A stretch of DNA of 64,000 nucleotides from Candidatus Latescibacterota bacterium (GTDB taxonomy: Bacteria > Latescibacterota > UBA2968 > UBA8231), in assembly GCA_965215195.1 (NCBI GenBank), contig CBDCDC010000002.1, positions 2,336,001 through 2,400,000 on the forward strand, given 5' to 3'. Below the pieces are notes generated by a model. It saw nothing but the letters and a program-made list of their open reading frames with translations. It was not told where the DNA came from and ran no database searches. Both the position numbers and the translations under genes were made by a program. Position 1 is the first letter of the stretch, and every line of letters begins with the position of its first letter. This document shows, piece after piece, positions 26,251-59,177 of the stretch.

Positions 26251-26266
26251 TGGCACACAACTTGCA
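26251..26266 (+). promoter_or_regulatory. Sigma-54 (-24/-12) promoter
   Basis: TGGCAC-acaac-TTGCA matches the consensus with correct spacing, 50 bp before the 26317 ATG and directly downstream of the activator gene. Confidence 0.88.
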
Positions 26267-26316
26267 TTATATCGTCGTTGAAGGCGAAACCTCCTCTACC
26301 ATGAGGCGTAACGGAT

Positions 26317-27435
26317 ATGGAAGCGCTACTCAATGATTTTGGCCGCGTGTTTGCGTTGGAGCTACTGATGGTCTGTGCTCTTACCATCTGCGGTTGCTAT
26401 ACGGTCTATACGGATATTCACTTCCGCCATATCCCCAATGGGGCGAGTTGGGGCCTAGTGGCCGTAGGGTTGGTCGGCCAAGGTTTATTCTGGCTGTGGG
26501 GAGCGGTCGAACTGGAGCAGGCCGGCCTCGTCTTTTTGGTCGGTTTTGCCGTTAGTTACGCCCTCTATATCTATGGATTCTGGGCGGCAGGCGACGCCAA
26601 ATTGTTTTGGGCTTTTGTCTTGGTGCTGCCGCCGACGTGCTTCTCTTCCCCTTCCCTTTCCTCGTTTAACGCGCCGATTTGGGCCCTGCTGCTCAACGCG
26701 TTCGTGCTCACCTGTTTTGTCTTGCTGGTCTTGTGGGCGATGTTGCGTCGAGGTCGGTCCGCGGAAGCCACGGTGGATTGGGACGCCTCGCAAGGGCTGT
26801 CTCTCGGCTTGGAGTTGGCCGGCCTGATCGGGCTGGTGCTGGGTTTGGGCTCCTTCCTGCTGGGAGAGGCAATGACCTTTGTCGAGGTCGTGGTCGCTGT
26901 CCTCGTACTCTATCTACTCGTTGACCGCTTCGTGCCCCGGCGTTACCGGCTGACCTTGGCCCTGCCCGGTCTGATCTTAGGCGGCTACACGGCCTTGGCA
27001 TCTGGAGACTGGCCGATCTATCTGGTGCTGTGGATCGTCTCTTGGGGGGCGTTCTTCCTCTACCATATCATCCGGCATCTAGCTCCTCGGTCCTTCGTAC
27101 AGGTGCTGCCCATTCAGGCGTTGCGCCAAGGCATGGTGCCGCGTCTGGCGATCTATGCGGCGGATAGAGGAGGGGCCTACCGTTGTGGCGCAGAAGTCGG
27201 GCAAGAGCAGGACGTGCTGTGTCATCCCGGCCGGCCGTTGACGAAGGGGCACGTGCGGACGTTGCACGAAAAATCGGCGGGCGGTGCTTTCGCGCCATTT
27301 GGCAATGAGTTGGCAGTGGAACTGGCCGTCCCATTCGCGCCGATAATCGCTGTCGCTGGGGTGTTGACGGTGGTCTTGGGCGGGAGTCTGATCCAACCAT
27401 TGATCCAGCTATTCTCGCCGTGGCTGCGGTCTTAG
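26317..27435 (+). CDS. A24-family prepilin/class III signal peptidase
   Basis: Catalytic Asp motifs YTDIHFRHIPN and GFWAAGDAKLF; C-terminal VPFAPIIA; polytopic membrane protein. Confidence 0.8.
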   Translation: MEALLNDFGRVFALELLMVCALTICGCYTVYTDIHFRHIPNGASWGLVAVGLVGQGLFWLWGAVELEQAGLVFLVGFAVSYALYIYGFWAAGDAKLFWAFVLVLPPTCFSSPSLSSFNAPIWALLLNAFVLTCFVLLVLWAMLRRGRSAEATVDWDASQGLSLGLELAGLIGLVLGLGSFLLGEAMTFVEVVVAVLVLYLLVDRFVPRRYRLTLALPGLILGGYTALASGDWPIYLVLWIVSWGAFFLYHIIRHLAPRSFVQVLPIQALRQGMVPRLAIYAADRGGAYRCGAEVGQEQDVLCHPGRPLTKGHVRTLHEKSAGGAFAPFGNELAVELAVPFAPIIAVAGVLTVVLGGSLIQPLIQLFSPWLRS

Positions 27436-27445
27436 GGGGCTAACG

Positions 27446-28063
27446 ATGAATCGGGATAGAAAAGACCCTGTGACGATGGCCTTTGGCGTCTTGTTGGTCG
27501 CCTTGCTGCCGACCTTTTTCCTGTTGGCGAGCCGCTATCAGTCGCTCGACGAGCGCATGCGGCAGTTGCAGCCGAAGCCCTTTGTACCCGCGCCTTCCCC
27601 GGAGGACCTGTTGGCGCAAGTAAGCCACGTCGTATCCGACAGTACGCTCCATCTCCAACCGGTCTGGGCTGCCGAGCCGGAACCGACTTCTGGCCTCGTG
27701 GCCGACTACCAAGTCATGCGCGGCGACGAGGCGGTCTATCGGCTGGTGCTGTTCCGCTACGACATCGCTTGTCGTGTGTGCCGGGACGTGCTGGCTGCCG
27801 CCCTGTACGAGGGCGACACACTGGCGCAGATCCTCCTGCTCGACGAGTGGGAGGTGCGCGGCGAGCGGGTGGATACGGCGCGTTTTTTGCGCCAATTCGC
27901 CGGTCGCTTGATGGCGGAGGAACTGGCGCTTGAGTCCAATGTCGATGGAATCAGCGGAGCCACGTTTTCAACCGGGGGCTTGGTCGAACAGCTCAACACA
28001 GCCGCGGCGTGGGTGCGGGAGCATCCGCTGGAGACGCCTGCAAGCGAGGAGAAACGACTGTGA
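27446..28063 (+). CDS. Membrane-anchored FMN-binding (flavinylation motif) protein with CxxC
   Basis: N-terminal TM helix; CRVC; FLRQFAG..VDGISGATFST, the FMN_bind signature. Confidence 0.75.
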   Translation: MNRDRKDPVTMAFGVLLVALLPTFFLLASRYQSLDERMRQLQPKPFVPAPSPEDLLAQVSHVVSDSTLHLQPVWAAEPEPTSGLVADYQVMRGDEAVYRLVLFRYDIACRVCRDVLAAALYEGDTLAQILLLDEWEVRGERVDTARFLRQFAGRLMAEELALESNVDGISGATFSTGGLVEQLNTAAAWVREHPLETPASEEKRL

Positions 28064-28599
28064 ACGCTCTCAGACCCACTCGCGGGGCTACGACCTTGAT
28101 TGTGGCCACGGGCGTCCTGTTGGGAGCCTGTACTTTCTTGGCGGCCAAGATCGTCAACCCCCCTCCCATTGATCCGCTCGATGTGGAGTTTTGGGATTTG
28201 CTGGGCACGCAAGCGGCTATACTGGAATTAGAAGATCTGGCGGGCACGGGCACGGTTTCTAACGCGCAGTTTGTGAACCAGCCCTATTTGATCATTTTCG
28301 CCGACTCTGAATGCAGTGCCTGCGAGAGCATCTATCCCCACCTGCTGCGCGCCTCGCAGGTACAGGGGGTGAATGTCCTGTTGATTGCCTCGGGCGACCG
28401 GCCGGCGATGCACGACAAAATGGAGGAACACAGTTTTGCGTTCCCCGTCGCCTTTGATTCCCTGTTGACGGCGAATGCGCCCTTTGAAGTAAAGGCTTTT
28501 CCGGCCTCCGTATTGGTGGATGCCGAAGGCAACATTGCCAAAGCCGCTACCGGTGACCAGACCGCCATAGCCGTAATACGCTTGGCTGGAAGGTCCTGA
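28060..28599 (+). CDS. TlpA/MauD-like thioredoxin-fold protein
   Basis: GTGA-coupled start; N-terminal anchor; FADSECSAC; FPVAFD; cis-Pro loop AFPASVLVDAEG. Confidence 0.8.
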   Translation: MNALRPTRGATTLIVATGVLLGACTFLAAKIVNPPPIDPLDVEFWDLLGTQAAILELEDLAGTGTVSNAQFVNQPYLIIFADSECSACESIYPHLLRASQVQGVNVLLIASGDRPAMHDKMEEHSFAFPVAFDSLLTANAPFEVKAFPASVLVDAEGNIAKAATGDQTAIAVIRLAGRS

Positions 28600-28614
28600 A
28601 AGGATGAATGCACC

Positions 28615-29181
28615 ATGCAATATGTAACGCTCTTGCGTCGTCCGGTGGTGTGGACGGTGATGGCCTGTGCCGCAGTCGTGCTCTTTTTGGCGTTGCGTCC
28701 CTCTTCGTCGGCCATCTCGCCCGTGGTCTGGACCGAGCCATCGGCCAACCCTCTGTCCAAGGTGCTGCGATCGGGGGATGCTGCGCCGGACTTCGCGCTG
28801 CCGGCCGTGCAGGGTGGCGTTGTAGCATTGAGTGCGTTGCAGGGAAAGTCCGCCCTGCTCGCCTTTGTTACGGCGGAATGTCCCTATTGTCAGAAATTAA
28901 ACAAGGAACTCGAAGCCTTTGAACTGAACGCGGATCAACAACTCGTGTTCATCTGCACCGGGGAGGAGGGGGCGCGGAAGATTAGCGAGACCTATTCCTT
29001 TACGTACCCGGTGTTAATTGACTCGGCTGGCGCAGTCTCACAGGCGTACAAGACCCCCGGGGTGCCTACGGTGTATCAGATCGATACCGAGGGGACGGTG
29101 GTGGACTTCGTGTTGGGGTGGCCGCCGGCTTGGGAGTTTGTGCGGGGTTTTGGCCGCGCCCAGCCGAGCGAAGGCTCTTGA
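28615..29181 (+). CDS. TlpA/ResA-like thioredoxin-fold protein
   Basis: N-terminal anchor; GDAAPDFALP; ECPYC; YPVLID; GVPTVYQID..G. Confidence 0.85.
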   Translation: MQYVTLLRRPVVWTVMACAAVVLFLALRPSSSAISPVVWTEPSANPLSKVLRSGDAAPDFALPAVQGGVVALSALQGKSALLAFVTAECPYCQKLNKELEAFELNADQQLVFICTGEEGARKISETYSFTYPVLIDSAGAVSQAYKTPGVPTVYQIDTEGTVVDFVLGWPPAWEFVRGFGRAQPSEGS

Positions 29182-29204
29182 GGTAATTAGCTCAATGACC
29201 ACTA

Positions 29205-29312
29205 CGGCCCAGAAAGGAGGTGTATCCCGTGCTCGCAGGTTTGATGCCAAGTCAGCGACCACAACGGTTCGCTGATCCTTTTCCGACCCTTTTGAGGAGA
29301 AATGCATTATGA
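29205..29312 (+). promoter_or_regulatory. Conserved cassette leader: SD, 27-codon uORF and hairpin (copies at ~32042, ~34889; decayed at ~53226, ~55505)
   Basis: AGAAAGGAGGTG then GTG ORF VLAGLMPSQRPQRFADPFPTLLRRNAL* (29229-29312), whose TGA overlaps the peptide ATG; hairpin 29252-29275. Confidence 0.6.
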
Positions 29313-29635
29313 AGTCCTTAACGTTTGTTTTCGAGGCGACGCTGCTGGCCCCGCTGGTGGAGTTCGCCACGTCGACCAGCGGCCACGTTGAGCCGCGTCA
29401 GGGCTTGGCCTTGGGGTGGTTGGGCAGCGTGGTGGCCGGGCTGGCGGTGGTGTTCGGCACGGCCGACCAGGCGCAGGCCGATCCCTGCAACGAAGGCTGG
29501 CACTGCTCCAACGATATGTGCGACTGGGATCACCATGGAAACCCCATAGCGGCGTATGACAAGAAATGGGTTCACCATCCTAATGACCCCCCTGGATGCG
29601 TAAGCACGGCAAGGGCCTGTACCTGTCCTCCGTAA
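29309..29635 (+). CDS. Secreted 6-Cys peptide precursor 1
   Basis: RBS GAGGAG; 57-aa leader ending AQA; core DPCNEGWHCSNDMCDWDHHGNPIAAYDKKWVHHPNDPPGCVSTARACTCPP. Confidence 0.85.
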   Translation: MKSLTFVFEATLLAPLVEFATSTSGHVEPRQGLALGWLGSVVAGLAVVFGTADQAQADPCNEGWHCSNDMCDWDHHGNPIAAYDKKWVHHPNDPPGCVSTARACTCPP

Positions 29636-29703
29636 TCTACCATCCGGATATATCGCGGCTGTCCAAATAGGAGGATGGTTCTGCGGTAAGTGCTGAGAGG
29701 TAT

Positions 29704-29742
29704 AGCCCCTGTGGCACTCTAGGGCCGGGTGCCACAGGGGCT
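29704..29742 (+). terminator. Conserved strong hairpin between the peptide and FG-GAP genes (copies 32539-32569, 35395-35423, ~37711-37734)
   Basis: agcccctgtggcac...gtgccacaggggct; the outer stem co-varies between copies; no clear U-tract, so it may be a stabiliser or partial terminator. Confidence 0.5.
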
Positions 29743-29829
29743 GGTTATCCTCTGGTCTGCGGAGTCTGTCGTATCATAGAGGTAGAGCATTCGCTCGACT
29801 AACATTCTTCCCCATGCTGGAGGTGCATT

Positions 29830-32019
29830 ATGCGCTGCTTGCTGATTGCGATTGGATTACTATCGGCTCCGCTGGGAGCTTTCGCCCTAACGTGGGATTT
29901 TGACGAGGGGACAACTTGGGGCTGGACCGCCTACGAGAGTGAATTAAACTTCGGCAATCTTAATCCCACCACGGTGTACAGCGAAGTCGAAGATGGTATC
30001 TGGCGCATTGCGCCGGTGCTAAACGGACAGATACCGGCCATTCGCTTGCTCTCGCCGCTGATTGGGGAGGACTCGGCCTTGTTCGACCGGGTCACCCTCC
30101 GGCTGCGTATCATCCATAATCGCCCCACCGGGGGAACCCTCCTGATGGCGTGGTCCAATGGCGAATCCCGACGCCGCAAGCAGGAAGCGGGCCAACTTGG
30201 AAGCCGGTCGGAGTTTTATACGGGCCGTTATCAACTGTATCCCATCGAATGGGAAAATATCACGATAGATATTCGCGCCTTGGAAGCCGGTTTGGAAGCC
30301 AGACAAGAAGAGCCGATTGCGACCATTTGGGCGGATACCTCGATAGTTTGGCAGGACACTCTCTTCCACTTGCAATTAGACCTAAACTTGAACCATAACC
30401 CCGAGGGTCCGGCCGATCATCCTGAGTTTGTCGAAGTCGATTGGATTCAACTGACGGGGGCTGAAGAGTTGCTGTTCGGGGAATTGCAGCCCCGGGCGAT
30501 CGCCAAGGCTGGGTTGCCCGGGGCGTTGTTTGCCGAACCGCGTTTTTCTGCTTTGGGTCCGGGTATCGGTAGCTTAGAATCGCAAGGTACTTTGGGCGAT
30601 GTAGATGGCGATGGCGATGCCGACTTGGTGGTGGTCTGGACCCACGACACGGTCGTCAAAGTGACCGAAGGGACGTTTGAGAGGACGACCCAAGCGGGCT
30701 GGACGGTCGCGTCCAGCGACGGGTTGGGCGGCTTGGGTCCCACCCGAGAGGTGCTCCGCGGAGGCGAGCCCCTCATGGGCATTGCGGGGGACGACTTCAA
30801 CGGGGATGGACTGCTTGATCTGGCCTTTCGTGATGGTCGGACCCTCGAATTGTGGCTCAACCGGGGCGAGGATGGCTTTGAAACCATCCTCCAGCTATCC
30901 GACGTGTGGTTCGAGGGCTTAGCCGATGGCGATGGCGATGGCGATGTGGACCTGTTGGTCTGGGAGTTCGCCGACCGATTCCACCTACTAGAGTCGCAGG
31001 TGATTATGTGGATCAATGACGGCGCGGCCGGGTTTGCCCACCGCGATCGGTTCGTCCTCGACACCGAAGAAGACCTCCGTGCTTTCCTGCTGGCCGGGCA
31101 ACCGGAGGGCGAGGCCGTGCGCCTGTTGTGGTCCCGACCGTCCTGCAAGCCTGGGGGGACTTTACGGCTGACCCAGCCGTGGGCGGCCAGCGAGCAGTCT
31201 CCGCTGTTTTTTGACGCCCCGCTCAATCCCTGCGACCTGCACCTGCTCACCGATCTGGACGGGGATGGGGCGGTGGAGTTGGTTGGGACACCCGAGCGGA
31301 ATCTATACTTCGACTTTGATGTTCTCACCACCTACCACGGTTTGGCGTTGTGGCGAGTGGACGCTTCGGGCGGGGTGGAACGCCACGACCTGCTCGGTCC
31401 GCAGGTGCTTCTGCCGGATCCGTATTTTGATGATGGGGTCCTTGCCCGCGACCTGACTGGCGATGGCCTGCTGGACTTGGCCGTAGTGGATGTCAACCCG
31501 GCGACGGGGCCGGCGCTGGTGGTGCTGGTCGGCCAGCGCGATGGGGTGCCCGTCGTCGAGGGGCGCTATCCGCTGCCGGGCGTGGGCGCCGAAGTGCTCG
31601 CCGGCGATGTCAACGGCGATGGGGCTGTTGATCTGGTGGTGTTGGGCAGGAGTGTGGAAGGGGGCGATGGCGGGGCCTTCGTCTTTCTCAATCAAAGCGT
31701 CCCGGCCACTGCTATCGCGGCCGAGACGACGGCGACGCCCGCAACATTTGCGTTAGGTGCCAACTATCCCAACCCGTTCAATCCGGCTACGACGATCCCC
31801 GTATCGGTGGCGGGTGCGGGCGACGTGGCCGTAACCATCTACAACGTCTTGGGGCAGCCGGTGCGCGCGGTGTGGAACGGTCCGTTGGCGGCGGGCGAGC
31901 ATCGGCTGACGTGGGATGGCCGAGACGGGCAGGGGCAATCCGTCGCCGCCGGAGTCTATCTGGTGCGGCTGCACCAAGGCGACCACACGCGCCTCCGCAA
32001 GATGGTCAAACTCGAATAG
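29830..32019 (+). CDS. Secreted FG-GAP/VCBS repeat protein with N-terminal CBM-like domain and C-terminal FlgD-Ig/T9SS-like sorting domain (paralog 1)
   Basis: Signal peptide; GDVDGDGDADL, DFNGDGLLDL, DLTGDGLLDL and GDVNGDGAVDL repeats; ANYPNPFNP..IYNVLGQPVR..WDGRD..GVY. Confidence 0.88.
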   Translation: MRCLLIAIGLLSAPLGAFALTWDFDEGTTWGWTAYESELNFGNLNPTTVYSEVEDGIWRIAPVLNGQIPAIRLLSPLIGEDSALFDRVTLRLRIIHNRPTGGTLLMAWSNGESRRRKQEAGQLGSRSEFYTGRYQLYPIEWENITIDIRALEAGLEARQEEPIATIWADTSIVWQDTLFHLQLDLNLNHNPEGPADHPEFVEVDWIQLTGAEELLFGELQPRAIAKAGLPGALFAEPRFSALGPGIGSLESQGTLGDVDGDGDADLVVVWTHDTVVKVTEGTFERTTQAGWTVASSDGLGGLGPTREVLRGGEPLMGIAGDDFNGDGLLDLAFRDGRTLELWLNRGEDGFETILQLSDVWFEGLADGDGDGDVDLLVWEFADRFHLLESQVIMWINDGAAGFAHRDRFVLDTEEDLRAFLLAGQPEGEAVRLLWSRPSCKPGGTLRLTQPWAASEQSPLFFDAPLNPCDLHLLTDLDGDGAVELVGTPERNLYFDFDVLTTYHGLALWRVDASGGVERHDLLGPQVLLPDPYFDDGVLARDLTGDGLLDLAVVDVNPATGPALVVLVGQRDGVPVVEGRYPLPGVGAEVLAGDVNGDGAVDLVVLGRSVEGGDGGAFVFLNQSVPATAIAAETTATPATFALGANYPNPFNPATTIPVSVAGAGDVAVTIYNVLGQPVRAVWNGPLAAGEHRLTWDGRDGQGQSVAAGVYLVRLHQGDHTRLRKMVKLE

Positions 32020-32145: not shown

Positions 32146-32466
32146 ATGAAGTCCTTAACGTTTGTTTTCGAGGCGACGCTGCTGGCCCCGCTGGTGGAGT
32201 TCGCCACGTCGACCAGCGGCCACGTTGAGCCGCGCCAGGGCTTGGCCTTGGGGTGGTTGGGCAGCGTGGTGGCCGGGCTGGCGGTGGTGTTCGGCACGGC
32301 CGACCAGGCGCAGGCCGATCCCTGCAACGAAGGCTGGCACTGCTCCAACGATATGTGCGCCGAGGATCACCATGGAAACGGTCTTGCGGCGTGGGACAGA
32401 TACTATGTCCACGATGATGAAAATCACTGCACAAACACGATTAGTTCCTGTAGCTGTCCTCCGTAA
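32146..32466 (+). CDS. Secreted 6-Cys peptide precursor 2
   Basis: Leader identical in amino acids to precursor 1; core DPCNEGWHCSNDMCAEDHHGNGLAAWDRYYVHDDENHCTNTISSCSCPP. Confidence 0.85.
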   Translation: MKSLTFVFEATLLAPLVEFATSTSGHVEPRQGLALGWLGSVVAGLAVVFGTADQAQADPCNEGWHCSNDMCAEDHHGNGLAAWDRYYVHDDENHCTNTISSCSCPP

Positions 32467-45525: not shown

Positions 45526-45570
45526 ATAGGGGGGCGCGTGTTAGGTGCTGCCGAAAAGAGAGGGCATAAG

Positions 45571-49685: not shown

Positions 49686-49733
49686 ATGGGGGGGCGCGTG
49701 TTAGGTGCTGCCGAAAAGAGAGGGCATAAGACG

Positions 49734-51044
49734 ATGAGACGGCCATGGAAAGTCCCATTCCAAAAGAATAGAAAGCTGCAAAGCTGCTTGGCGGTGTCGC
49801 TGGCCTTGCATCTGCTGGTGATCTTCGGAATTCCGCGCCATGAGCGGGTCACCCACTTTCCCGTCCAACCGCCGATCATGGTGAAGTTTACCAAGAAGCG
49901 CCCGCTGCCGCGCACCCTCGCCCGCCGCCAACGGCCCCAACAGCGCCCGTTGGTGCGCCGCCCCGCCCTGCAAGCCGCCCCGGTCGTAGCGATGCGGCCG
50001 GTTCCCTCGGCGACGCGCCCGCTACCGGTGTTCAAGTCGTCGGCTCTCCGACTGCCAACGGCGGCACTGCCAGCGCGACTGGTGCTGCCCGTGCCGGATT
50101 TCCCCGCTCGGCAGATTGGTCCGTCCCTACAGGCTGGAGCACTGGAAGGGACGCGGCAGGGCGCGGACGAGATTGACTTGTCTTTGGAACTGATGGACGT
50201 ACAGGCGCTGGACACGGGTCGGCACCGGGCAATGGTCGTCGTCGATCCCCAAGATCGGCGCAAGCTCAAGGGCTTCCTCTACATGTCCAATGTTTATAGC
50301 CCGTCCATTGACCGGGCTGAGCCGGAAACGTCGCGCCGACTTTTTCAGACGCGCCAAATGCGAGAAAAACGGATGCTGCAAGGATTGGCCGATAAGATGG
50401 TCGCCAGTACGCAAGTCCACGTCGAAGTGCGCGACGCAGTGGCGCTTGACGACCCGCAGCTATTGCAGGTGCCCTTCGTACTGCTGACCTCGAGCGCACC
50501 CTTTGAGTTTACCGAGGCGGAGACAGCCAACTTAGGGGCCTATCTAACTTCGGGTGGCTTCCTGTTTGCCGAGATTGTGCGCGATTTGCGACCCAATTAC
50601 AGCGACGCCGAATTAGACATCTTGGCGGTGCGTTCCCTGCTGCGCACCAGCTTTCAAGCGGTGGGCTATCAAGAGTGGAAGGACTGGCAGTTTACCCGCT
50701 TAGAGATGGCCCATCCGCTCTATCATTGCTTCTACGATGTAGGCAGCCTCCCACGCGGGATGCGCGATATGCGCTATCAATATGTAGGTTCGACGCCACT
50801 AACCCCGGACTATTTGGAGGGCATCGTAGTAGGGGACCAGTTGGCCGGGGTGTATTCGATGAAGGGCTACGCCGATTTCTGGGCGGGTATCGCCGAGCAG
50901 GAGCAGGCGACCTTTGATGTGGCCAATAGTCCGTTTATCGCCAGTGCCGAGGAGCCGTTGGTATATAATTTGGGCGTCAATATCGTGGTGTATGCGTTGA
51001 CGCGGGAGGGATCATTGGCTCAACAATTCGTCGATGCGGACTGA
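49734..51044 (+). CDS. Membrane-anchored DUF4159-like protein (copy 2)
   Basis: N-terminal ~180 aa near-identical to 45571; same C-terminal motifs. Confidence 0.78.
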   Translation: MRRPWKVPFQKNRKLQSCLAVSLALHLLVIFGIPRHERVTHFPVQPPIMVKFTKKRPLPRTLARRQRPQQRPLVRRPALQAAPVVAMRPVPSATRPLPVFKSSALRLPTAALPARLVLPVPDFPARQIGPSLQAGALEGTRQGADEIDLSLELMDVQALDTGRHRAMVVVDPQDRRKLKGFLYMSNVYSPSIDRAEPETSRRLFQTRQMREKRMLQGLADKMVASTQVHVEVRDAVALDDPQLLQVPFVLLTSSAPFEFTEAETANLGAYLTSGGFLFAEIVRDLRPNYSDAELDILAVRSLLRTSFQAVGYQEWKDWQFTRLEMAHPLYHCFYDVGSLPRGMRDMRYQYVGSTPLTPDYLEGIVVGDQLAGVYSMKGYADFWAGIAEQEQATFDVANSPFIASAEEPLVYNLGVNIVVYALTREGSLAQQFVDAD

Positions 51045-51064: not shown

Positions 51065-53203
51065 ATGCGCTACTTGCTCATTACGATTGGATTATTGGCG
51101 GCTCCACTGGGAGCTTTGGCCCTAACGTGGGATTTTGACGAGGGCACCACTTGGGGCTGGACGGCCCAAGAAAGCTACTTAGGCGATGACAACAGGGGGG
51201 CCACCACGGTGTACAGCGAAGTCGAAGGCGGCGTCTGGCGCATTGCGCCGGTGCCGGGCGGACAACGACCCGCCATTCAATTGCGCTCGCCGCTGATTGG
51301 GGAAGACTCCGTTCTGTTTGACTATATCACCCTACGGCTACGCATCATCCACGATCGCCCCACCGGGGGGAACCTCCATCTAAAGTGGTTCAACACCGAG
51401 TACCGAGGCCTCAAGGCGGTAGGAGGAAAAATCTCACTAGACTATCGGAAGAAATTTTATACGGGACGTTATCAAATCTACCCCACCGAATGGGAAAACA
51501 TCACGCTAGATATACGCGCCTTGGAAGCCGCGGCGGAAGCGAACCCAGAAGCGGCGATCACTTGGCAGGACACCCTCTTCGACTTCCAATTAGAACTGAA
51601 TCTAAACGTCAACCCCGAGGGTTCGGCCGATCATCCGGCCTTTATAGAAGTGGACTGGATTCAACTGACGGGAGCCGAAGAGCTGCTGTTAGGGGAATTG
51701 CAACCTCGGGAGGTGGCCGCGGAGGCCGGGTTGCCCGGCGCGTTGTTCGTCGCGCCCACCTTCTTTCCCCTCGGCGAGGGCATCGAGATGAGAGAGGCGC
51801 TACGCCCGCAAAGTGCTTTGGGGGATGTGGACGGCGATGGGGATGCCGATCTGGTGGTGGCTTGGGTGCGCCGCTCTACGGGCCCAGTAGAAACGGGCTG
51901 GCTGGTGGCGTCCAACGACGGGCTGGGGGGCTTTGTCCCCACCCAAGAGGGTTCCCTCCTCGAGATAGAGCGGGGCGCTTACCCCCAACCCGTCCTCGCG
52001 GGAGGCGATTTCGACGGGGATGGACTCCTCGATCTGGCCGTTGCGGGGGGTGTTTCCGTTGAACTATGGCACAATCGGGGCAAGGACGGCTTTGAACCCA
52101 TTCTGCAATTATCCGATGTCACTTTCGTTGGCCTCGCCGATGGCGACGGCGATGGCGACGTGGACCTGTTGGGCTTGGAAGTAGGCGACCTATGGTCCAA
52201 CGTGATTATGTGGTTCAACGATGGCGACGCCGGGTTTGTCCGTAGCGATCGGTTCGTCCTCGATAGCGAGGAGCCCCTGTTTCCCTTGCCACTGGCTGGG
52301 CAACCCTTGGGCGAGGCCGTGCGCCTGTTATGGGTCCGGCCGTGTTACTTGCCCCAAGGGACTTGGCAACTGACTCGGCCGTGGGCGACTAGCAGGGAAC
52401 CGCCGCTGTTTTTTGACGCCGTGGTCAACCCCTGTAAACAACTGCACTTGCTTGTCGATGTGGATGGCAATGGAGAGGTGGAGTTCGTCGGGTCGCCCGA
52501 TCTGGCTCTACAATTCGGCCTCACTACGTACCACGGTTTGGCCCTGTGGCGTCTGGGTGCCTCGGGCGTAGTGGAACGCCCCACCCTGCTCGGCTCGCAG
52601 GTGCTCGTCCCGCATCGGGCCATTGCCCACGATTTGACCGGCGATGGCCTTTTGGACTTGGCCGTGGTCGATGGCAACTTGGCCACCGGGCCGGCACTGG
52701 TGGTGTTGGTTGGTCAGCGCGATGGGGTGCCTGTCGTCGAAGGGCACTACCCCCTGCCGGGCACGGGCGGTCCCGTGCTCGCTGGCGATGTAAACGGCGA
52801 TGGGGCGACCGATCTGCTCGTGCTGGGCAGGAGTATGGAAGGCGGTCTGGGCGGGGTCTTCGTCTTTCTCAACCAGAGCGTCCCGGCCACAGCCGTCGCG
52901 GCCGAGACGGCAGCCACGCCCCCGGCCTTTGCCCTCGGTGCGAACTATCCCAATCCGTTCAATCCGGCCACGACTATCCCTTTGGCCCTGCCCGCCGGAA
53001 CTAGCGACATGGATTTAACGATCTACAACACGTTGGGGCAGCCGGTGCGCCAAGTGTGGAACGGTCCGCTGGCGGCGGGCGAGCACCGACTCACTTGGGA
53101 TGGCCGGGACGGGCAGGGGCAGCCGGTCGCCGCTGGGGTCTATTTATATCGGGTGCAGGTGGGCGACCACACGCGCATTCGCAAGATGGTCAAAATCGAA
53201 TAG
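51065..53203 (+). CDS. FG-GAP/FlgD-Ig secreted protein (paralog 7)
   Basis: Same architecture; upstream ccccactctggaggtgcatt identical to that of paralog 4. Confidence 0.88.
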   Translation: MRYLLITIGLLAAPLGALALTWDFDEGTTWGWTAQESYLGDDNRGATTVYSEVEGGVWRIAPVPGGQRPAIQLRSPLIGEDSVLFDYITLRLRIIHDRPTGGNLHLKWFNTEYRGLKAVGGKISLDYRKKFYTGRYQIYPTEWENITLDIRALEAAAEANPEAAITWQDTLFDFQLELNLNVNPEGSADHPAFIEVDWIQLTGAEELLLGELQPREVAAEAGLPGALFVAPTFFPLGEGIEMREALRPQSALGDVDGDGDADLVVAWVRRSTGPVETGWLVASNDGLGGFVPTQEGSLLEIERGAYPQPVLAGGDFDGDGLLDLAVAGGVSVELWHNRGKDGFEPILQLSDVTFVGLADGDGDGDVDLLGLEVGDLWSNVIMWFNDGDAGFVRSDRFVLDSEEPLFPLPLAGQPLGEAVRLLWVRPCYLPQGTWQLTRPWATSREPPLFFDAVVNPCKQLHLLVDVDGNGEVEFVGSPDLALQFGLTTYHGLALWRLGASGVVERPTLLGSQVLVPHRAIAHDLTGDGLLDLAVVDGNLATGPALVVLVGQRDGVPVVEGHYPLPGTGGPVLAGDVNGDGATDLLVLGRSMEGGLGGVFVFLNQSVPATAVAAETAATPPAFALGANYPNPFNPATTIPLALPAGTSDMDLTIYNTLGQPVRQVWNGPLAAGEHRLTWDGRDGQGQPVAAGVYLYRVQVGDHTRIRKMVKIE

Positions 53204-53319
53204 ACGACCCGAGTCTATCATCCCTCCGGCCAGAAAGGAGGTGTATTCCGTGCTCGCAGGTTTGATGCCAAGTCAGCAACCACAATGTCTTGTGTTCTAC
53301 CTCTAAAGGGAGACAAACT

Positions 53320-55482
53320 ATGCGCTGCTTGCTCATTGCTATTGGCTTGTTGGCTATTCCACACGGAGTCTTCGCCCTAACGTGGGATTTTGACGAAGAC
53401 ATCACTTGGGGCTGGACCGCTCACGAGAGTGGCTACGGCAATGACATTGGAGTTAGTCCCACCACGGTGTACAGCGAAGTCGAAGAGGGCGTTTGGCGCA
53501 TTGCTCCCGTGCCGGGTGCTCAACGACCTGCCATTAAGTTGCGCTCGCCGCCGATTGGGGAAGACTCCACCCTGTTCGACTGGGTCACCCTACGGCTACG
53601 CCTCATACACCATCGCCCCACCGCGGGACAGTTCCAAATGGCGTGGTTCAATGCCGAGTACAGACGCCTCAGGGAGGAATTAGGACCAACCTCACCAGAT
53701 TATAGGCAGAAGTTTTATATGGTACGTTATCAAATCTATCCGACTGAATGGCAAGACATCACTATAAATATACGCCGGGCCTTGGAAGCAGATCTAGCAG
53801 AAAGAGAAAAGGAGATCGTTTGGCAGGACACCCTCTTTGAATTTCATATAGAGCTAAGTTTAAACGACAACGCGCAGGGCCCGGCTGATCATCCGGCCTT
53901 TTTAGAAGTGGACTGGATTCAACTGACAGGGGCCGAAGAACTGCTGCTGGGGGAGTTGCAGCCCCGGGAGATCGCCGTGGAGGTCGGATTGCCCGGCGCG
54001 TTATTCGCCGAGCCCGACTTTTTCCCCCTCGGCGAAGGCATCGAGAAAATCCTCAGTTTGGTACTCCCGCAAGGTGCTTTGGGGGATGTGGATGGCGATG
54101 AGGATGTGGATCTCGTGGCGGTCTGGGAGCGCCGTACGAACAACGGAGGAGTCCTAGAAGTAGAACAGGGCTGGCTGGTGGCGTCCAACGACGGTCTGGG
54201 AGGCTTTGTCCCCACCCGAGAGGTTTCCTTCTTCAAGATAGCGAAGGGCTCTTACCCACAACTTGTCGTTGCGGGGGGCGATTTCGACGGGGATGGACTC
54301 CTCGATCTGGCCGTTTCGAGGGGTGTTTCCGTTGAACTGTGGCACAATCGGGGCAAGGACGGCTTTGAACCCATTCTGCAATTATCCGATTTCGCTTTCG
54401 TTAGCCTCGCCGATGGCGATGGCGACGGCGACGTGGACCTGTTGGGCTTGGAAGTAGGCGACACATGGTCCAATGTGATTATGTGGTTCAACGATGGCGA
54501 CGCCGGGTTTGTCCGTAGCGATCGGTTCGTCCTCGATAGCGAGGAGCCCCTGTTTCCCTTGCCGCTGGCTGGGCAACCCTTGGGCGAGGCCGTGCGCCTG
54601 TTATGGATCCGGCCGTGCTACCTGCCCCAAGGGACTTGGCAACTGATCCGACCGTGGGCGACCAGCAGGGAACCGCCGCTGTTTTTTGACGCCGTGGTCA
54701 ACCCCTGTACCCAATTGCACTTGCTCGTCGATCTAGATGGCAATGGAGAGGTGGAGTTCGTCGGAACTCCCGATCGGGATCTACAATTTGAACTTCACGG
54801 CGGCATCACCTACCACGGTTTGGCGCTGTGGCGTCTGGGTGCCTCGGGCGTGTTGGCACGCCACACCCTGCTTGGCTCACAGGTGCTCATGCCGCATCGC
54901 GCCATTACCAGCGACCTGACCGGCGATGGCCTTTTGGACTTGGCCGTGGTCGATGGCAACTTGGCCACCGGGCCGGCGCTGGTGGTGCTGGTCGGCCAGC
55001 GCAATGGCGTACCCGTCGTCGAAGGCCGCTACCCCCTGCCGGGCGTGGGCAGCCAAGTGCTCGCCGGGGATGTCAACGGCGATGGGGCGACCGATCTGCT
55101 CGTGCTGGGAAGGAGTATGGAAGGCGGTCTCGGCGGGGCCTTCGTCTTTCTCAACCAAGGCGGTCCGGCCACTGCTATCGCGGTCGAGACGACGGCTACG
55201 CCCGCAACATTTGCGTTGGGTGCCAACTATCCCAACCCGTTCAATCCAGCCACAACGATCCCCGTATCGGTGGCGGGTGCGGGCGACGTGGATGTAACGA
55301 TCTACAACGTCTTGGGGCAGCCGGTGCGCGAGGTGTGGAACGGTCCGTTGGCGGCGGGCGAGCATCGGCTAACTTGGGATGGTCGAGACGCGCAGGGGCA
55401 GCCGGTCGCCGCCGGGGTCTATTTGTATCGGCTGCACCAAGGCGACCAGACGCGCATCCGCAAAATGGTCAAAATCGAATAG
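53320..55482 (+). CDS. FG-GAP/FlgD-Ig secreted protein (paralog 8)
   Basis: Same architecture; start MRCLLI chosen by paralogy. Confidence 0.88.
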   Translation: MRCLLIAIGLLAIPHGVFALTWDFDEDITWGWTAHESGYGNDIGVSPTTVYSEVEEGVWRIAPVPGAQRPAIKLRSPPIGEDSTLFDWVTLRLRLIHHRPTAGQFQMAWFNAEYRRLREELGPTSPDYRQKFYMVRYQIYPTEWQDITINIRRALEADLAEREKEIVWQDTLFEFHIELSLNDNAQGPADHPAFLEVDWIQLTGAEELLLGELQPREIAVEVGLPGALFAEPDFFPLGEGIEKILSLVLPQGALGDVDGDEDVDLVAVWERRTNNGGVLEVEQGWLVASNDGLGGFVPTREVSFFKIAKGSYPQLVVAGGDFDGDGLLDLAVSRGVSVELWHNRGKDGFEPILQLSDFAFVSLADGDGDGDVDLLGLEVGDTWSNVIMWFNDGDAGFVRSDRFVLDSEEPLFPLPLAGQPLGEAVRLLWIRPCYLPQGTWQLIRPWATSREPPLFFDAVVNPCTQLHLLVDLDGNGEVEFVGTPDRDLQFELHGGITYHGLALWRLGASGVLARHTLLGSQVLMPHRAITSDLTGDGLLDLAVVDGNLATGPALVVLVGQRNGVPVVEGRYPLPGVGSQVLAGDVNGDGATDLLVLGRSMEGGLGGAFVFLNQGGPATAIAVETTATPATFALGANYPNPFNPATTIPVSVAGAGDVDVTIYNVLGQPVREVWNGPLAAGEHRLTWDGRDAQGQPVAAGVYLYRLHQGDQTRIRKMVKIE

Positions 55483-55640
55483 ACGACCCGAGTCTATCAT
55501 CTCTTCGGCCAGAAAGGAGGTGTATTCCGTGCTCGTAGATTTGATGCCAAGTCAGCAACCACAACGGTTTGCTGGTCATTTTTCCTACCACTCAAGGAGG
55601 ATTTAGTTATGAAGTCTTTGCCTCTAAAGGGAGGTTCGTT

Positions 55641-57737
55641 ATGCGCTGCTTGCTCTTTGCTATTGGATTATTGGCCGCTCCACTGGGAGCCTTTGCCCTA
55701 ACATGGAATTTTGACGAGGGCACCACTTGGGGCTGGACCGCCCAAGAGAGTAGCCACAGCAGTGGGACTACAGGGAATGTCACCACGGTGTCCAGCGAAG
55801 TCGAAGACGGTGTCTGGCGCATCGCTCCGGTGCCTACCGCGCAACGACCGGCCCTTCAATTGCGTTCACCCCCGATTGGGGAAGACTCCGCCCTGTTCGA
55901 CTGGGTCACCCTACGGCTGCGCATCATTCACCATCGCCCCACTACGGGGCGGCTCGAAATGGTGTGGTTCAATTCCGAGTACAGACGCCTTGATGCGTAC
56001 CGACACCTAGAATTGTGGCCTCAGTTTCATACGGGACGTTATCAAATCTATCTCACGGAATGGCAAGACATCACCATAGATATACGGGCCTTGGAAGCGG
56101 ACCCAGAAACAGAGGTCACTTGGCAGGATACCCTTTTCGACTTCCAGATAGACTTGGATTTAAACACTGACCCGCAGGGCCCGGCTGATCATCCGGCCTT
56201 TTTAGAAGTGGACTGGATTCAACTGACAGGGGTCGAAGAGTTGCTGCTGGGGGAATTGCCGCCCCGGGAAATCGCTGTGGAGGCGGGATCGCCCGGCGCG
56301 TTGTTCGCCGCACCGGACTTTTTCCCCCTCGGCGAGGGCATCGGGAACAGAAGCGGTCTGCGAGAATCGCCGGGCACTTTGGGCGATGTGGACGGCGATG
56401 GAGATATGGATCTCGTGGCGGTCTGGCAGCGCCTTACAGACCACGGATCATTCCTTGGCTGGACAATAGCGTCACAAGACGGCTTGGGACGCTTGGTCCC
56501 CACCCTAGAGGCCACGCGCCAAGCCACGAGAATTGATCTCCAAGGGAGCGACTTCGACGGGGATGGGCTCTTAGATCTGGTCTTCTCTGGAGACCAGATC
56601 GTCGAACTGTGGCACAACTGGGGCGAGGACGGCTTTGAGACCACGCTGCGGCTGTCCGGCGTCGGGCTCCTTGGCCTAGCTGATGGCGATGGCGATGGCG
56701 ATGTGGACCTCTTGGTTATAGACTTGGATGACGAGACAGCCCACGTGATCTTATGGATCAACGATGGCGACGACGGATTTGTCCGCAGTGATCGGTTCGA
56801 TCTCGACAGCGAAGAGGAGCTGCTTCCTTACCTGCTCCCCGGGCAGCCTCTGGGCGAGGCCGTGCGCCTGTTATGGAACCGACCGTGCTATCAGCCCCAA
56901 GGGCCTTGGCAACTGACCCGGCCGTGGGCGGCCAGCGAGGAGTCGCCGCTGTTTTTCGAGGCGGAGGTCAACCCCTGTAACCTGCACCTGCTCGCCGATG
57001 TGGATGGCGATGGGGCGATGGATGTACTCGGCTCCCCCGAGAGAAGAAAGTTCCCCGGCACCACCTACTACGGTTTGACGCTGTGGCGTCTGGACACTTC
57101 GGGAGTGTTGACCCGCCACCCTCTACTCGGCTCGCAGGTGCTCGCGTCGCATCGGGCCATTGCCCACGACCTGACCGGCGATGGCCTTTTGGACTTGGCC
57201 GTGGTCGATGGCAACTTGGCCACCGGGCCGGCGCTGGTGGTGCTGGTCGGCCAGCGCGCTGGCGTGCCCGTTGTCGAAGGCCGCTACCCCCTGCCGGGCG
57301 TGGGCAGCCAAGTGCTCGCCGGGGATGTCAACGGCGATGGGGCGACCGATCTGGTGGTGCTGGGCAGGAGTGTGGACGGCGGTTCGGGCGGGGCCTTCGT
57401 CTTTCTCAACCAGAGCGTCCCGATGACAGCCGTGGCCCCGGAGGCGACCACCCCCTCAACCGTTGCCCTCGGTGCCAACTATCCCAACCCATTCAATCCG
57501 GCCACGACTATCCCTTTGGCCCTGCCCGCCGGAACTAGCGACATGGATTTAACGATCTACAACACGTTGGGGCAGCCGGTGCGCCAAGTGTGGAACGGTC
57601 CGTTGGCGGCGGGCGAGCATCGGCTAACTTGGGATGGTCGGGACGCGCAAGGGCATCCGGTAGCCGCCGGGGTCTATTTGTATCGGTTGCAGGTGGAAGA
57701 CCAGACGCGCCTGCGCAAAATGGTCAAAATCGAATAG
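55641..57737 (+). CDS. FG-GAP/FlgD-Ig secreted protein (paralog 9)
   Basis: Same architecture; RBS GGAGGT; start MRCLLF chosen by paralogy. Confidence 0.88.
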   Translation: MRCLLFAIGLLAAPLGAFALTWNFDEGTTWGWTAQESSHSSGTTGNVTTVSSEVEDGVWRIAPVPTAQRPALQLRSPPIGEDSALFDWVTLRLRIIHHRPTTGRLEMVWFNSEYRRLDAYRHLELWPQFHTGRYQIYLTEWQDITIDIRALEADPETEVTWQDTLFDFQIDLDLNTDPQGPADHPAFLEVDWIQLTGVEELLLGELPPREIAVEAGSPGALFAAPDFFPLGEGIGNRSGLRESPGTLGDVDGDGDMDLVAVWQRLTDHGSFLGWTIASQDGLGRLVPTLEATRQATRIDLQGSDFDGDGLLDLVFSGDQIVELWHNWGEDGFETTLRLSGVGLLGLADGDGDGDVDLLVIDLDDETAHVILWINDGDDGFVRSDRFDLDSEEELLPYLLPGQPLGEAVRLLWNRPCYQPQGPWQLTRPWAASEESPLFFEAEVNPCNLHLLADVDGDGAMDVLGSPERRKFPGTTYYGLTLWRLDTSGVLTRHPLLGSQVLASHRAIAHDLTGDGLLDLAVVDGNLATGPALVVLVGQRAGVPVVEGRYPLPGVGSQVLAGDVNGDGATDLVVLGRSVDGGSGGAFVFLNQSVPMTAVAPEATTPSTVALGANYPNPFNPATTIPLALPAGTSDMDLTIYNTLGQPVRQVWNGPLAAGEHRLTWDGRDAQGHPVAAGVYLYRLQVEDQTRLRKMVKIE

Positions 57738-57820
57738 ACGCACGAACTTGTAACGGACATGCTTGAGATATTGCGCCGACACATAGCGGCTGGCAGCGTT
57801 TCATGGAACGATTGAATGGG
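57738..57820 (+). pseudogene. Minimal scar of a third GT-module copy
   Basis: cggacatgcttgagatattgcgccgacacatagcg resembles 40055-40090 and is joined to acgattgaatgggggg from the 45525 junction. Confidence 0.7.
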
Positions 57821-57872
57821 GGGGCGTGGGGATGTGGATTAGGCCCTGCCGAAAAGAGAAAGGCATAAGACA

Positions 57873-59177
57873 ATGATACGGCCATGGAAAGTCCCATTCC
57901 GAAAAAATAGAAAGCTGCAAAGCTGCTTGGCGGTGTCGCTGGCCTTGCATCTGCTGGTGATCTTCGGACTCCCGCGCCACGAGCGGGTCACCCACTTTCC
58001 CTTGCAACCGCCGATCATGGTGAAGTTTACCAAGAAGCGCCCGCTGCCGCGCACCCTCGCCCGCCGCCAACGACCCCAACAGCGCCCGTTGGTGCGCCGC
58101 CCCGCCCTGCAAGCGGCCCCGGTCGTAGCGATGCGGCCGGCTCCCTCGGCGTCGCGCCCGCTACCGGTGTTCAAGTCGTCGGCTCTCCGACTGCCAACGG
58201 CGGCACTGCCGGCGCGGCTGGTGATGCCCGTGCCGGATTTCCCCGCTCGGCAGATTGGTCCATCCCTACAGGCGGGGGCATTGGAAGGGACGCGGCAGGG
58301 CGCGGACGAGATTGACTTGGCGTTGGAACTGATGGACGTGCAGGCACTGGACACGGGTCAGCATCGGGCAATGGTCGTCGTCGATCCCCAAGACCGGCGC
58401 AAGCTCAAGGGCTTCCTCTATATGTCCAATGTTTATAGCCCGTCCATTGACCGAGCTGAACGGGAAACATCGCGCCGACTGTACGAGGCGCGCCAACAGG
58501 CTGAGCGGCGGATGCTGCAAGGGTTGGCCGATAAGATGGTCGCCAGTACGCAAGTCCAAGTTGAGGTGCGCGACGCAGTGGCGCTCGACAGCCCGCAGCT
58601 TTTGCAAGTGCCCTTCGTGTTGCTGACGGCGAGTGGGCCTTTTGAGTTTACCGAGGCGGAGGCGGCCAACTTAGGGGCCTATTTGACTTCGGGTGGCTTC
58701 CTGTTTGCCGAGATTGTGCGCGAGTTGCGACCCAATTACAGCGACGCCGAATTAGACATCTTGGCGGTGCGTTCCCTGCTGCGCACCAGCTTCCAAGCGG
58801 TAGGTTATCAAGAGTGGAAGGATTGGCAGTTTAGCCGGCTGGAACTAACCCATCCGCTCTATCATTGTTTCTACGATGTAAACAGCCTCCCCCGCGGGAT
58901 GCGCGATATGCACTATACAGGATCTGCGCCGCTAACCCCGGACTATTTGGAGGGCATCGTAGTAGGGGACCAGCTAGTGGGGGTGTATTCGATGCGCGGC
59001 TACGCGGATTTCTGGGCGGGAAGTGCCCAGTTGGAGTGGGAGGCACTTGATGTGGTCAATAGTCCGTTTATCGCCAGTGCCGAGGAGCCGTTGGTGTATA
59101 ATTTGGGCGTCAATATCGTGGTGTACGCGTTGACGCGGGAAGGATCATTGGCTCAACAATTCGTCGAGGCGGACTGA
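57873..59177 (+). CDS. Membrane-anchored DUF4159-like protein (copy 3)
   Basis: Close paralog of 49734-51044; 3' flank matches that of copy 1. Confidence 0.78.
   Translation: MIRPWKVPFRKNRKLQSCLAVSLALHLLVIFGLPRHERVTHFPLQPPIMVKFTKKRPLPRTLARRQRPQQRPLVRRPALQAAPVVAMRPAPSASRPLPVFKSSALRLPTAALPARLVMPVPDFPARQIGPSLQAGALEGTRQGADEIDLALELMDVQALDTGQHRAMVVVDPQDRRKLKGFLYMSNVYSPSIDRAERETSRRLYEARQQAERRMLQGLADKMVASTQVQVEVRDAVALDSPQLLQVPFVLLTASGPFEFTEAEAANLGAYLTSGGFLFAEIVRELRPNYSDAELDILAVRSLLRTSFQAVGYQEWKDWQFSRLELTHPLYHCFYDVNSLPRGMRDMHYTGSAPLTPDYLEGIVVGDQLVGVYSMRGYADFWAGSAQLEWEALDVVNSPFIASAEEPLVYNLGVNIVVYALTREGSLAQQFVEAD

Follow-up and report, generated by a model that had tools for sequence, protein, structure and literature searches.

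A sigma-54-linked locus of a Latescibacterota bacterium with an A24 peptidase, redox proteins, cysteine-rich peptides and FG-GAP propellers

The DNA described here, referred to as the window, is a stretch of 64,000 nucleotides from Candidatus Latescibacterota bacterium (assembly GCA_965215195.1, contig CBDCDC010000002.1, positions 2,336,001 to 2,400,000 of the forward strand). The genome is 6.13 Mb in two contigs, 95.2% complete with 8.5% contamination. An earlier note had read about 33 kb of the window as a single sigma-54 locus, in which shared processing machinery would serve an expandable repertoire of exported disulfide peptides and matched FG-GAP surface proteins. The computational follow-up presented here points to a core of five parts within this locus: an A24 peptidase, a protein with a flavin mononucleotide (FMN)-binding-like region and a CxxC motif, two TlpA-like redoxins and a cysteine-rich precursor peptide. 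From the sequence evidence we give an even chance to the reading that the core is a cassette, activated through sigma-54, that matures small disulfide-rich peptides for secretion, and that these dock on propellers in this genus.

Layout and control of the locus

All plausible genes between 26317 and 59177 lie on the + strand. The genes that had been reported were found at their places, and every domain assignment was reproduced by Pfam and NCBIfam scans. The control region, the core genes and the units that follow them are listed here, with lengths in amino acids (aa); T9SS stands for type IX secretion system.

22874..26017, + strand: sigma-54 enhancer-binding activator with an N-terminal Reg_prop/Y_Y_Y sensor, AAA+ and HTH_8 (Pfam; Sigma54_activat E 2.6e-64)
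26054..26118, no strand assigned: direct as well as inverted repeats GTGCAAAAGTCGTTCAT / ATGAACGACTTTTGCAC, lying 5' of the promoter at a distance of ~135-200 nt
26176..26236, + strand: conserved stem-loop element TGTTTTTCAATCCTTTAGG..CCTAAAGGA with a T-run after it, in the interval that separates activator gene and promoter
26251..26265, + strand: sigma-54 promoter TGGCACacaacTTGC, exact TGGCAC-N5-TTGC
26317..27435, + strand: A24 aspartyl peptidase of the TadV type (Pfam PF01478 and homolog alignment)
27446..28063, + strand: membrane-anchored FMN/CxxC protein, 205 aa (Pfam and motif evidence)
28009..28599, + strand: TlpA/ResA-like redoxin 1 (Tlp1), CSAC, N-terminal anchor (Pfam/NCBIfam)
28615..29181, + strand: TlpA/ResA-like redoxin 2 (Tlp2), CPYC, N-terminal anchor (Pfam/NCBIfam)
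29309..29635, + strand: precursor peptide 1, 108 aa, with a leader to Gly25, a signal-peptide-like helix ending AQA and a six-cysteine core
29709..29744, 32539-32569 and ~35392-35425, + strand: GC-rich hairpins TGTGGCAC...GTGCCACA 3' of peptide genes 1-3, in an otherwise conserved spacer
29830..32019, + strand: FG-GAP propeller protein 1 (FG1), with signal peptide, beta-sandwich, propeller and T9SS type A tail
32146..32466, + strand: precursor peptide 2, 106 aa
32665..34866, + strand: FG-GAP propeller protein 2
34993..35319, + strand: precursor peptide 3, 108 aa
35518..37704, + strand: FG-GAP propeller protein 3
37834..40038, + strand: FG-GAP propeller protein 4, without an adjacent peptide

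The proposal of a sigma-54 promoter was borne out. The site at 26251-26265 is the sole exact match to TGGCAC-N5-TTGC in the window, lies directly after the sigma-54 activator gene and 52 nt ahead of the A24 start codon, and is kept in 5/5 orthologous upstream regions (with one mismatch in one region). One copy of rpoN is present in the genome. The activator gene is kept directly upstream of the module, on the same strand, in four of the loci compared (L001-L004), and is also conserved upstream of it in locus B of the same genome.

The repeats at 26054-26118 are a candidate binding site for the activator, and the upstream repeats differ between loci whose activators differ. The element at 26176-26236 is near-invariant in 6/6 aligned upstream regions (window, L001-L004 and locus B) and much better conserved than its flanks. 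Its segment 26203-26225 was scored as terminator-like, and the element could be the terminator of the activator gene or a site for a bending protein. The hairpin that follows each peptide gene may act as an attenuator or RNA stabiliser. Scans for sigma-70 promoters and for terminators gave sites no more numerous than in shuffled sequence, and several intergenic gaps of 200-300 nt occur within the 33 kb. Transcription of the whole 33 kb from this one promoter, as the earlier note implied, is only a possibility.

A GAGGAG ribosome-binding site stands ahead of the first ATG of precursor peptide 1. The three peptides of the window are near-identical over residues 1-59 and variable in their cores, each of which has six cysteines. 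Peptide and propeller genes repeat together as units of 2.84 kb, in which the leader and its upstream region are 93-100% identical and the peptide core 61-72%. Patches of 99-100% identity alternate between unit pairs, confirming the mosaic structure that had been claimed for these units. Contigs assembled from four runs over 26251-46250 were fragmented across the repeats and had many unit-unit joints, for which assembly artefact and strain variation are both possible.

The ratio of non-synonymous to synonymous substitution (dN/dS) is 0.89, 1.71 and 2.24 for the peptide cores (~47 codons per pair), against 0-0.16 for the leader, and it is 0.33-0.53 for the whole FG1-4 genes. Diversification of the peptide cores, as the earlier note had it, is thus supported.

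The conserved core and the genus-specific additions

The order A24, FMN/CxxC, Tlp1, Tlp2, peptide is kept in 8/8 full loci (L001-L008). An FG-GAP gene comes next after the peptide in 7/8 of these; L004 has a fusion of a family 1 glycosyltransferase (GT1) and a transglutaminase there. The GT1-transglutaminase and GT2 genes lie downstream in L003-L008. The five parts were also found together in 7/12 distant loci (L022, L023, L024, L025, L027, L028 and L030), with A24 proteins 26-35% identical. In L029 Tlp1, Tlp2, A24 and peptide are present and no FMN/CxxC match was found.

FG-GAP genes are missing from the distant core-bearing loci, and only in this genus were FG-GAP, DUF4159 and GT genes found beside the core. 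What had been read as a 33-kb unit is thus a five-part core with genus-specific additions. The claim that the core genes co-occur elsewhere stands; the idea of the 33 kb as one system holds for the core but not for the FG-GAP, DUF4159 and GT genes.

The special A24 gene, recognised by profile, was present in 32/168 genomes of the phylum, in 27/75 other genomes of the same family (28/76 with the genome studied here) and in 17/30 of the same genus. As several one-contig genomes of the genus are without it, it is an accessory gene. The loci that bear it are labelled mostly as metagenome-assembled genomes (MAGs) of Candidatus Latescibacterota; L003 is labelled Gemmatimonadota and L009 a Rhodothermales MAG. 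A large protein collection held 51 A24 relatives, mostly 76-98% identical. Searching 1.84 billion representatives with the A24 profile gave 1264 at E<=0.001, 416 at <=1e-10 and 60 at <=1e-30, many of them full length.

Extension of the module to the distant A24 relatives was rejected: among 80 metagenome loci of a low-GC subgroup, FMN/CxxC or Tlp genes were found in 0/80 and the peptide gave one weak match. A repeated context of another kind is shared by distant full-length A24 relatives in eight low-GC loci (L041, L047, L061, L062, L070, L078, L081 and L090). In all eight the A24-like gene is followed by open reading frames of ~113-192, ~66-82 and ~432-478 aa. In L047 and L061 an 803-aa gene with a CxxxCxxC-type motif stands upstream of the A24-like gene, and the subgroup lies beside large radical-SAM-like genes. 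This context looks like another peptide-maturation set, which may resemble the His-Xaa-Ser systems.

The maturation genes had been called single-copy. This is correct within the window locus but not across the genome, where tblastn found two A24 genes and three FMN/Tlp1/Tlp2 sets, together with 29 FG-GAP paralogs, 18 DUF4159 matches (13 above 60% identity), five GT1-transglutaminase fusions and seven GT2 genes. A second full module lies ~170 kb upstream, its A24 protein 39% identical. The third locus (L036, at G000:C2:2762000-2781999) is a recent duplicate of the window locus with 94-98% protein identity; its A24 gene is reduced to a 58-aa remnant, the GT1 fusion and the FG-GAP gene without a tail survive as 79-aa remnants, and it has two genes in which leader, Cys-rich modules and T9SS tail are fused. 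Arrays of FG-GAP and DUF4159 genes also stand alone elsewhere in the genome, without maturation genes.

The remaining genes of the 33 kb are the following.

40060..42558, + strand: GT1 (MGT-like)-transglutaminase-like fusion, without signal peptide
42560..43636, + strand: GT2 glycosyltransferase; probable start ATG 42560, two bases past the stop codon of the GT1 fusion
43603..45525, + strand: divergent FG-GAP protein without T9SS tail
45538..46905, + strand: DUF4159 protein a, with a single transmembrane helix at the N-terminus, then a linker rich in Pro and Arg, and the DUF4159 domain at the C-terminus
47118..49388, + strand: divergent FG-GAP protein 6, with T9SS tail
49686..51044, + strand: DUF4159 protein b
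51065..53203, + strand: FG-GAP protein 7
53290..55482, + strand: FG-GAP protein 8
55569..57737, + strand: FG-GAP protein 9
57873..59177, + strand: DUF4159 protein c

We regard the DUF4159 and glycosyltransferase genes as accessory. The DUF4159 proteins have a basic N-terminus, one helix with an S-x3-H motif, a Pro/Arg-rich linker and a globular C-terminal DUF4159 domain, a layout and motif that we take to be TonB-like. The three copies are nearly identical over their first ~200 residues and more divergent in the DUF4159 domains. In the Atlas, DUF4159a falls in DUF4159 clusters commonest in Latescibacterota, which gave no function; against PDB sequences it matched one uncharacterised protein only (E 0.013), and a literature search on DUF4159 returned the Pfam paper alone. 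Neither the GT1-transglutaminase fusion nor the GT2 protein has a signal peptide. Nothing was found to tie either of them to the peptides, and the suggested glycosylation or cross-linking of the peptides is not supported.

The next co-directional gene (59209-62505) may belong to the locus; its product, of 1098 aa, combines TPR repeats with a propeller-type domain (GSDH/DUF7133). At the other end of the window (1-22800) open reading frames occur on both strands, and the G+C content dips to 0.57-0.58 at 10-16 kb.

Precursor peptides, peptidase and redox proteins

Precursor anatomy was examined in 40 distinct precursors from 20 loci and the window. A leader motif ...S/E-x-G was found in 39/40; in these 39 a basic residue occurs within nine residues past the leader Gly and a hydrophobic helix comes next. 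In precursors with a clear start codon, leader length is 13-29 aa. A small-x-small pattern, often with a Pro a few residues before it, lies within 12 residues ahead of the first core cysteine in 38/39. The hydrophobic helix and a GLxLGW motif are highly conserved, core cysteine counts are even in most precursors, and across 15 precursors no core residue is invariant besides Cys. As the stretch after the Gly resembles an ordinary Sec signal peptide, the precursor is read as a pro-leader, a signal peptide and a core. Cleavage may thus take place both after the Gly and at the small-x-small site. No NCBIfam model gives a name to the A24 protein, to the peptides or to the DUF4159 proteins.

The A24 protein scored 30.7 bits against PF01478 (cut-off 26.5). 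In a search of the whole genome with this family only two genes were above the cut-off (33.5 and 36.7 bits), and both sit in these modules. Its residues D33 (YTD) and D93 (GDAK), which we take to be the catalytic motifs of A24 peptidases, are invariant in 12/12 homologs and nearly invariant in 21 distant relatives. The protein has no methyltransferase domain and carries a conserved domain of ~100 aa inserted ahead of its final PFAP helix. The A24 profile gave 0 matches to PDB sequences at E up to 1.

A peptidase of this family adjoining genes for small proteins with a Gly-ending leader raises the possibility of a variant Tad/Flp-type filament, whose pilins would bear a Cys-rich head. Several features fit: processing would be of the TadV type, by an A24 protein with both Asp motifs and no methyltransferase domain; the presumed substrates, encoded next to the peptidase, have an N-terminal leader ending in a conserved Gly and then a membrane helix; and pilins typically have hypervariable C-terminal regions. 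At the level of the motif, we assume the leader to be comparable with Flp leaders.

The machinery of a filament is, however, absent. Searches of the genome (95.2% complete) for the T2SSE ATPase, the T2SSF platform protein and secretin gave 0 matches each, and T2SSE was above cut-off in only 4/28 module-bearing genomes of the family, 24/28 being without such a match. In a genome lacking pilus ATPase, platform protein and secretin, the A24 peptidase is detached from pili. The precursors differ as well. The class III (prepilin) signal is described in PMC4471445 as a leader of 6-26 aa ending in a conserved Gly, directly followed by ~21 hydrophobic residues with Glu at +5. The leader of our precursors does end in Gly; it is followed in 39/39 by 5-8 polar residues, a basic one among them, and Glu+5 was found in 2/39 only. 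The Flp_Fap family of Pfam matched 0/15 precursors, even at E up to 10. Unlike Tad/Flp pilins, the precursors also have a signal-peptidase-I-like site after the helix and a Cys-rich C-terminal module, in some paralogs fused to a T9SS tail, and the peptidase has its extra inserted domain. A filament of this type, already disfavoured, is thus very improbable.

According to PMC4471445, prepilin-type processing normally leaves the helix in the membrane. The precursors could then escape signal peptidase and stay, after A24 cleavage, as short bitopic inner-membrane proteins whose Cys-rich heads would serve to hold, gate or chaperone FG-GAP proteins in the periplasm or to signal back to the sigma-54 activator. 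The strong conservation of the helix and GLxLGW would fit this. In five paralogs of the genome, however, this leader and signal peptide are joined in one protein with Cys-rich modules and a T9SS tail; 8-14 cysteines come past the leader, and the two paralogs that were inspected have two modules each. PorU, the sole part of the T9SS searched for, is present (628.6 bits, cut-off 420). A T9SS tail implies release from the inner membrane, so that in at least some forms the Cys-rich modules are type IX cargo and must leave it. As the small-x-small site with its frequent Pro is also retained, we consider permanent membrane residence improbable.

The second arm of the core is a redox one. The FMN/CxxC protein has one N-terminal helix and a C-terminus with weak similarity to FMN_bind/RnfG, and carries CRVC and DGISGAT; the patterns RHDIxCxxCxD and DGxxGAT are invariant in 13/13 homologs. 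Its nearest Atlas clusters are FMN_bind families at 0.87, a level that gives a lead only, and its profile had no meaningful match among PDB sequences. DGxxGAT fits [S/T]GA[S/T], which PMC8238504 gives as the site flavinylated by ApbE. One ApbE gene, above cut-off, is present in the genome, and in L025 and L030 an ApbE gene lies directly upstream of the FMN/CxxC homolog. On these motifs it is proposed that the FMN/CxxC protein is flavinylated by ApbE.

The ApbE-flavinylated extracytosolic electron-transfer modules of PMC8238504 (eLife 2021) are similar in having a membrane-anchored FMN_bind-type protein with the [S/T]GA[S/T] site, ApbE in the genome (here adjoining the homolog in the two distant loci) and associated thioredoxin-like proteins. 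The present set differs in having an invariant CxxC within the same small protein and in its coupling to genes for an A24 peptidase and Cys-rich peptides. In the text available from PMC8238504 the word 'peptidase' occurs in the reference list only; its supplementary tables may list such clusters.

Tlp1 and Tlp2 scored 34.2 and 62.4 bits against AhpC-TSA (cut-off 26), and each has one N-terminal hydrophobic segment. Tlp2 also gave a weak, sub-threshold match to the PedC/BrcD bacteriocin disulfide isomerase (E 0.0039). Like oxidoreductases of the TlpA/ResA/MauD/PedC type they are membrane-anchored thioredoxin folds with CxxC, encoded beside a gene for a Cys-containing client; here, unlike there, two paralogs occur with a flavin/CxxC partner, the client is a hypervariable peptide family and all equivalog scores are far under their cut-offs. 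A flavin beside a CxxC could generate disulfides or deliver electrons for isomerisation. Searches of the genome gave no DsbB, no VKOR and one copy of DsbD. In line with the earlier note, a common machinery for cleavage and oxidative folding appears to have these peptides as its substrates.

Propeller pairing, type IX export and interpretation

FG-GAP_3 is above cut-off in 9/9 FG-GAP proteins, and a FlgD_ig/T9SS tail is present on 8/9, that encoded at 43603-45525 being without it. FG1 scored 36 bits against TIGR04183 (cut-off 23), and its NCBIfam matches were to T9SS and FlgD-type models only. In the large collection 743 relatives of the family were found at E<=0.001 among 8000 scored candidates; where a name is given, it is either 'T9SS type A sorting domain-containing protein' or 'FG-GAP-like repeat-containing protein' and nothing more specific.

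A fold predicted for FG1 from its single sequence was unusable (predicted local distance difference test, pLDDT, 33), and FG1 was remodelled with an alignment of 42 rows. The new model (pLDDT 78.5, predicted template-modelling score 0.76) has an N-terminal beta-sandwich, a propeller and a tail domain. Its top fold match was CRTAC1 (9etn, E 3.1e-9), with TM-scores <=0.33 over the whole model; a Streptomyces UmbA chain, Tc toxin B subunits, PorZ, fungal PVL lectins and integrin alpha-V also matched. In CRTAC1, integrin alpha and PVL propellers, the closest known folds, the top face is the ligand site. The present family differs from them in its low TM-scores, in the extra N-terminal beta-sandwich that would clamp the predicted peptide, and in being bacterial and amplified to 29 copies in the genome.

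Complex prediction for FG1 (residues 22-640) with core 1 (residues 58-108) gave scores of 0.67, 0.65 and 0.67, against 0.01 for the best of three controls. The mark applied to such scores is reached by 58/80 solved complexes and 2/110 mismatched pairs, counts that hold roughly here, where our own alignments were used. For the partner, pLDDT did not fall below 72, and 56% or more of the contacts were shared between runs. In the models the peptide sits between the beta-sandwich and the top loops of the propeller. This supports binding of peptide 1 to FG1, and with it the two-subunit complex that the earlier note had listed among possible roles. Of the predicted interface positions 35/47 are variable among FG1-3, vs 139/572 elsewhere (Fisher p 7.5e-12). 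The binding face would, therefore, be the variable face of the propeller.

The predicted architecture, with a small Cys-rich chain on the face of a propeller, is reminiscent of methylamine dehydrogenase. The locus might then encode a Mau/quinohemoprotein-type enzyme with a propeller heavy subunit, a small Cys-rich cofactor subunit and MauD-like redoxins, and both Tlp proteins do match MauD weakly. At 32.6 and 29 bits these matches are, however, far under the cut-off of 188.6; NCBIfam gave no MauA or MauB family match (MauG and MauE were not searched), and the propellers bear T9SS export tails. The hypervariable core, in which only Cys is invariant, is at odds with a cofactor-bearing role of the peptide. 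An enzyme of this kind, already disfavoured, is thus very improbable. The locus thus matches neither a Tad nor a Mau cluster, in agreement with the earlier note.

The reading that we favour is a cassette which matures peptides for docking on propellers, and it would work as follows. The precursor would insert into the inner membrane. The A24 peptidase would cut at the leader Gly, and signal peptidase I would cut after the conserved small-x-small site and place the Cys-rich core in the periplasm. The two membrane-anchored redoxins would form or shuffle the disulfides of the core, and the CxxC protein, with FMN attached by ApbE, would recycle the redoxins. In this genus the folded peptide is predicted to dock on the neighbouring FG-GAP propeller, in the cleft that its top face forms with the N-terminal beta-sandwich, and would leave with it through the T9SS by means of the propeller's C-terminal tail. 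Some paralogs, in which Cys-rich modules are fused directly to a T9SS tail, appear to skip the carrier. The outcome would be a varied set of peptide/propeller units, either released or displayed at the surface, for which recognition or adhesion is more likely than enzymatic activity.

In their TIGR04183/FlgD_ig tails, and with PorU in the genome, the FG-GAP proteins and fused paralogs resemble other T9SS type A cargo. They are unlike it in that a small subunit with no tail of its own would be taken along by a tailed carrier and that the fused paralogs have an extra A24-type pro-leader ahead of the signal peptide.

Several points weigh against this reading. Each step of the mechanism, be it cleavage, flavinylation, disulfide formation or binding, is deduced from sequence. 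With the hydrophobic tract and Glu+5 of prepilins missing and no Flp_Fap match, cleavage by A24 at the leader Gly is a guess; why a peptide with a normal signal peptide should need an A24 cut is unexplained, and the small-x-small pattern is lenient and common by chance. The FMN/CxxC protein scored only 18.6 bits against FMN_bind, under the cut-off of 22. The lack of DsbB and VKOR is a weak point rather than something special, as control searches suggest the same lack in Bacteroides: B. thetaiotaomicron was not among the 14 named genomes matched. A peptide gene adjoins 3/9 FG-GAP genes only, the other six being without one. The enrichment of variation at the interface is given without correction for surface exposure. 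In 11 peptide/FG pairs the distance between cores is correlated with that at the interface (r 0.46, p 0.004), but equally with distance over the rest of the FG protein (r 0.50, p 0.002), and a partial Mantel test of core against interface distance gave r 0.06, p 0.33. Specific co-evolution is, therefore, not shown, and the 'matched' variation of peptides and propellers that had been proposed was not upheld. Finally, the neighbour of the peptide in other genera is another gene: a MacB-type permease in L024, L025 and L030, or a member of an amplified secreted family of ~320 aa that adjoins peptide and A24 genes in four genomes. The link to FG-GAP proteins is thus not general.

The 320-aa family was located at L021:8772-14915, L022:10984-11952, L023:8145-9119 and L027:11772-13692, and in L028 and L029. 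It has five tandem copies in L021 and a conserved C-terminus ...AVESVTWxRIKA.... No Pfam, NCBIfam or PDB match was found for it, and homology with the N-terminal domain of the FG-GAP proteins was rejected (hhalign probability 0.3%).

These observations bear on a further explanation, that the peptides, matured by the cassette, are secreted to act on their own, for instance as signals or bacteriocin-like toxins, and that the FG-GAP proteins are co-regulated surface adhesins that do not bind them. The core cassettes of distant genera without FG-GAP genes, the permease after the peptides, the FG-GAP/DUF4159 arrays that stand apart from maturation genes, the lack of specific co-variation and the weak PedC/BrcD match of Tlp2 are all in keeping with it. 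In this genus's loci, however, 20/21 short precursors directly precede an FG-GAP gene, and do so in two module lineages with A24 proteins only 39% identical; the complex prediction passed with clean controls, and no immunity-like gene was identified. We consider stand-alone peptides rather unlikely. As regards the interpretation in the earlier note, shared cleavage and folding, a complex and diversification were supported; matched co-variation and glycosylation or cross-linking were not.

A broader proposal, which we put forward tentatively, is that docking of matured peptides on propellers forms part of an unrecognised pathway: a pilus-free A24 leader peptidase, a flavin/CxxC disulfide generator feeding two TlpA-like carriers, and a piggy-back on propellers through the T9SS. 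In this genome, where neither DsbB nor VKOR was found, the CxxC protein would then be a functional analogue of the Erv/QSOX sulfhydryl oxidases, and the product would be a two-chain, cassette-shuffled repertoire for surface recognition. The component families are known; it is their combination that is undescribed, and most of all the occurrence of an A24 peptidase without filaments next to a flavin/CxxC/TlpA cassette and hypervariable Cys-rich cargo. The literature searched gave no description of this gene set, and no named pathway matched. Among the papers listed, none was found that combines Latescibacteria, sponge and FG-GAP, and PMC12993501 has 0 mentions of type IX, T9SS, integrin, sigma-54 or pili. 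The papers listed for prepilin peptidases with cysteine-rich or non-pilin substrates were pilus papers only, PMC10191384 among them.

If the proposal is correct, A24 prepilin peptidases would gain a job outside type IV filaments in bacteria, and a flavin/CxxC route would be added to periplasmic disulfide chemistry. Type IX export would extend to a tail-less subunit on a tailed carrier, of which we know of no earlier case. For a phylum that, to our knowledge, has no cultured representative, it would also account for a large lineage-specific expansion, with 29 FG-GAP and 13 close DUF4159 paralogs in a 6.1-Mb genome.

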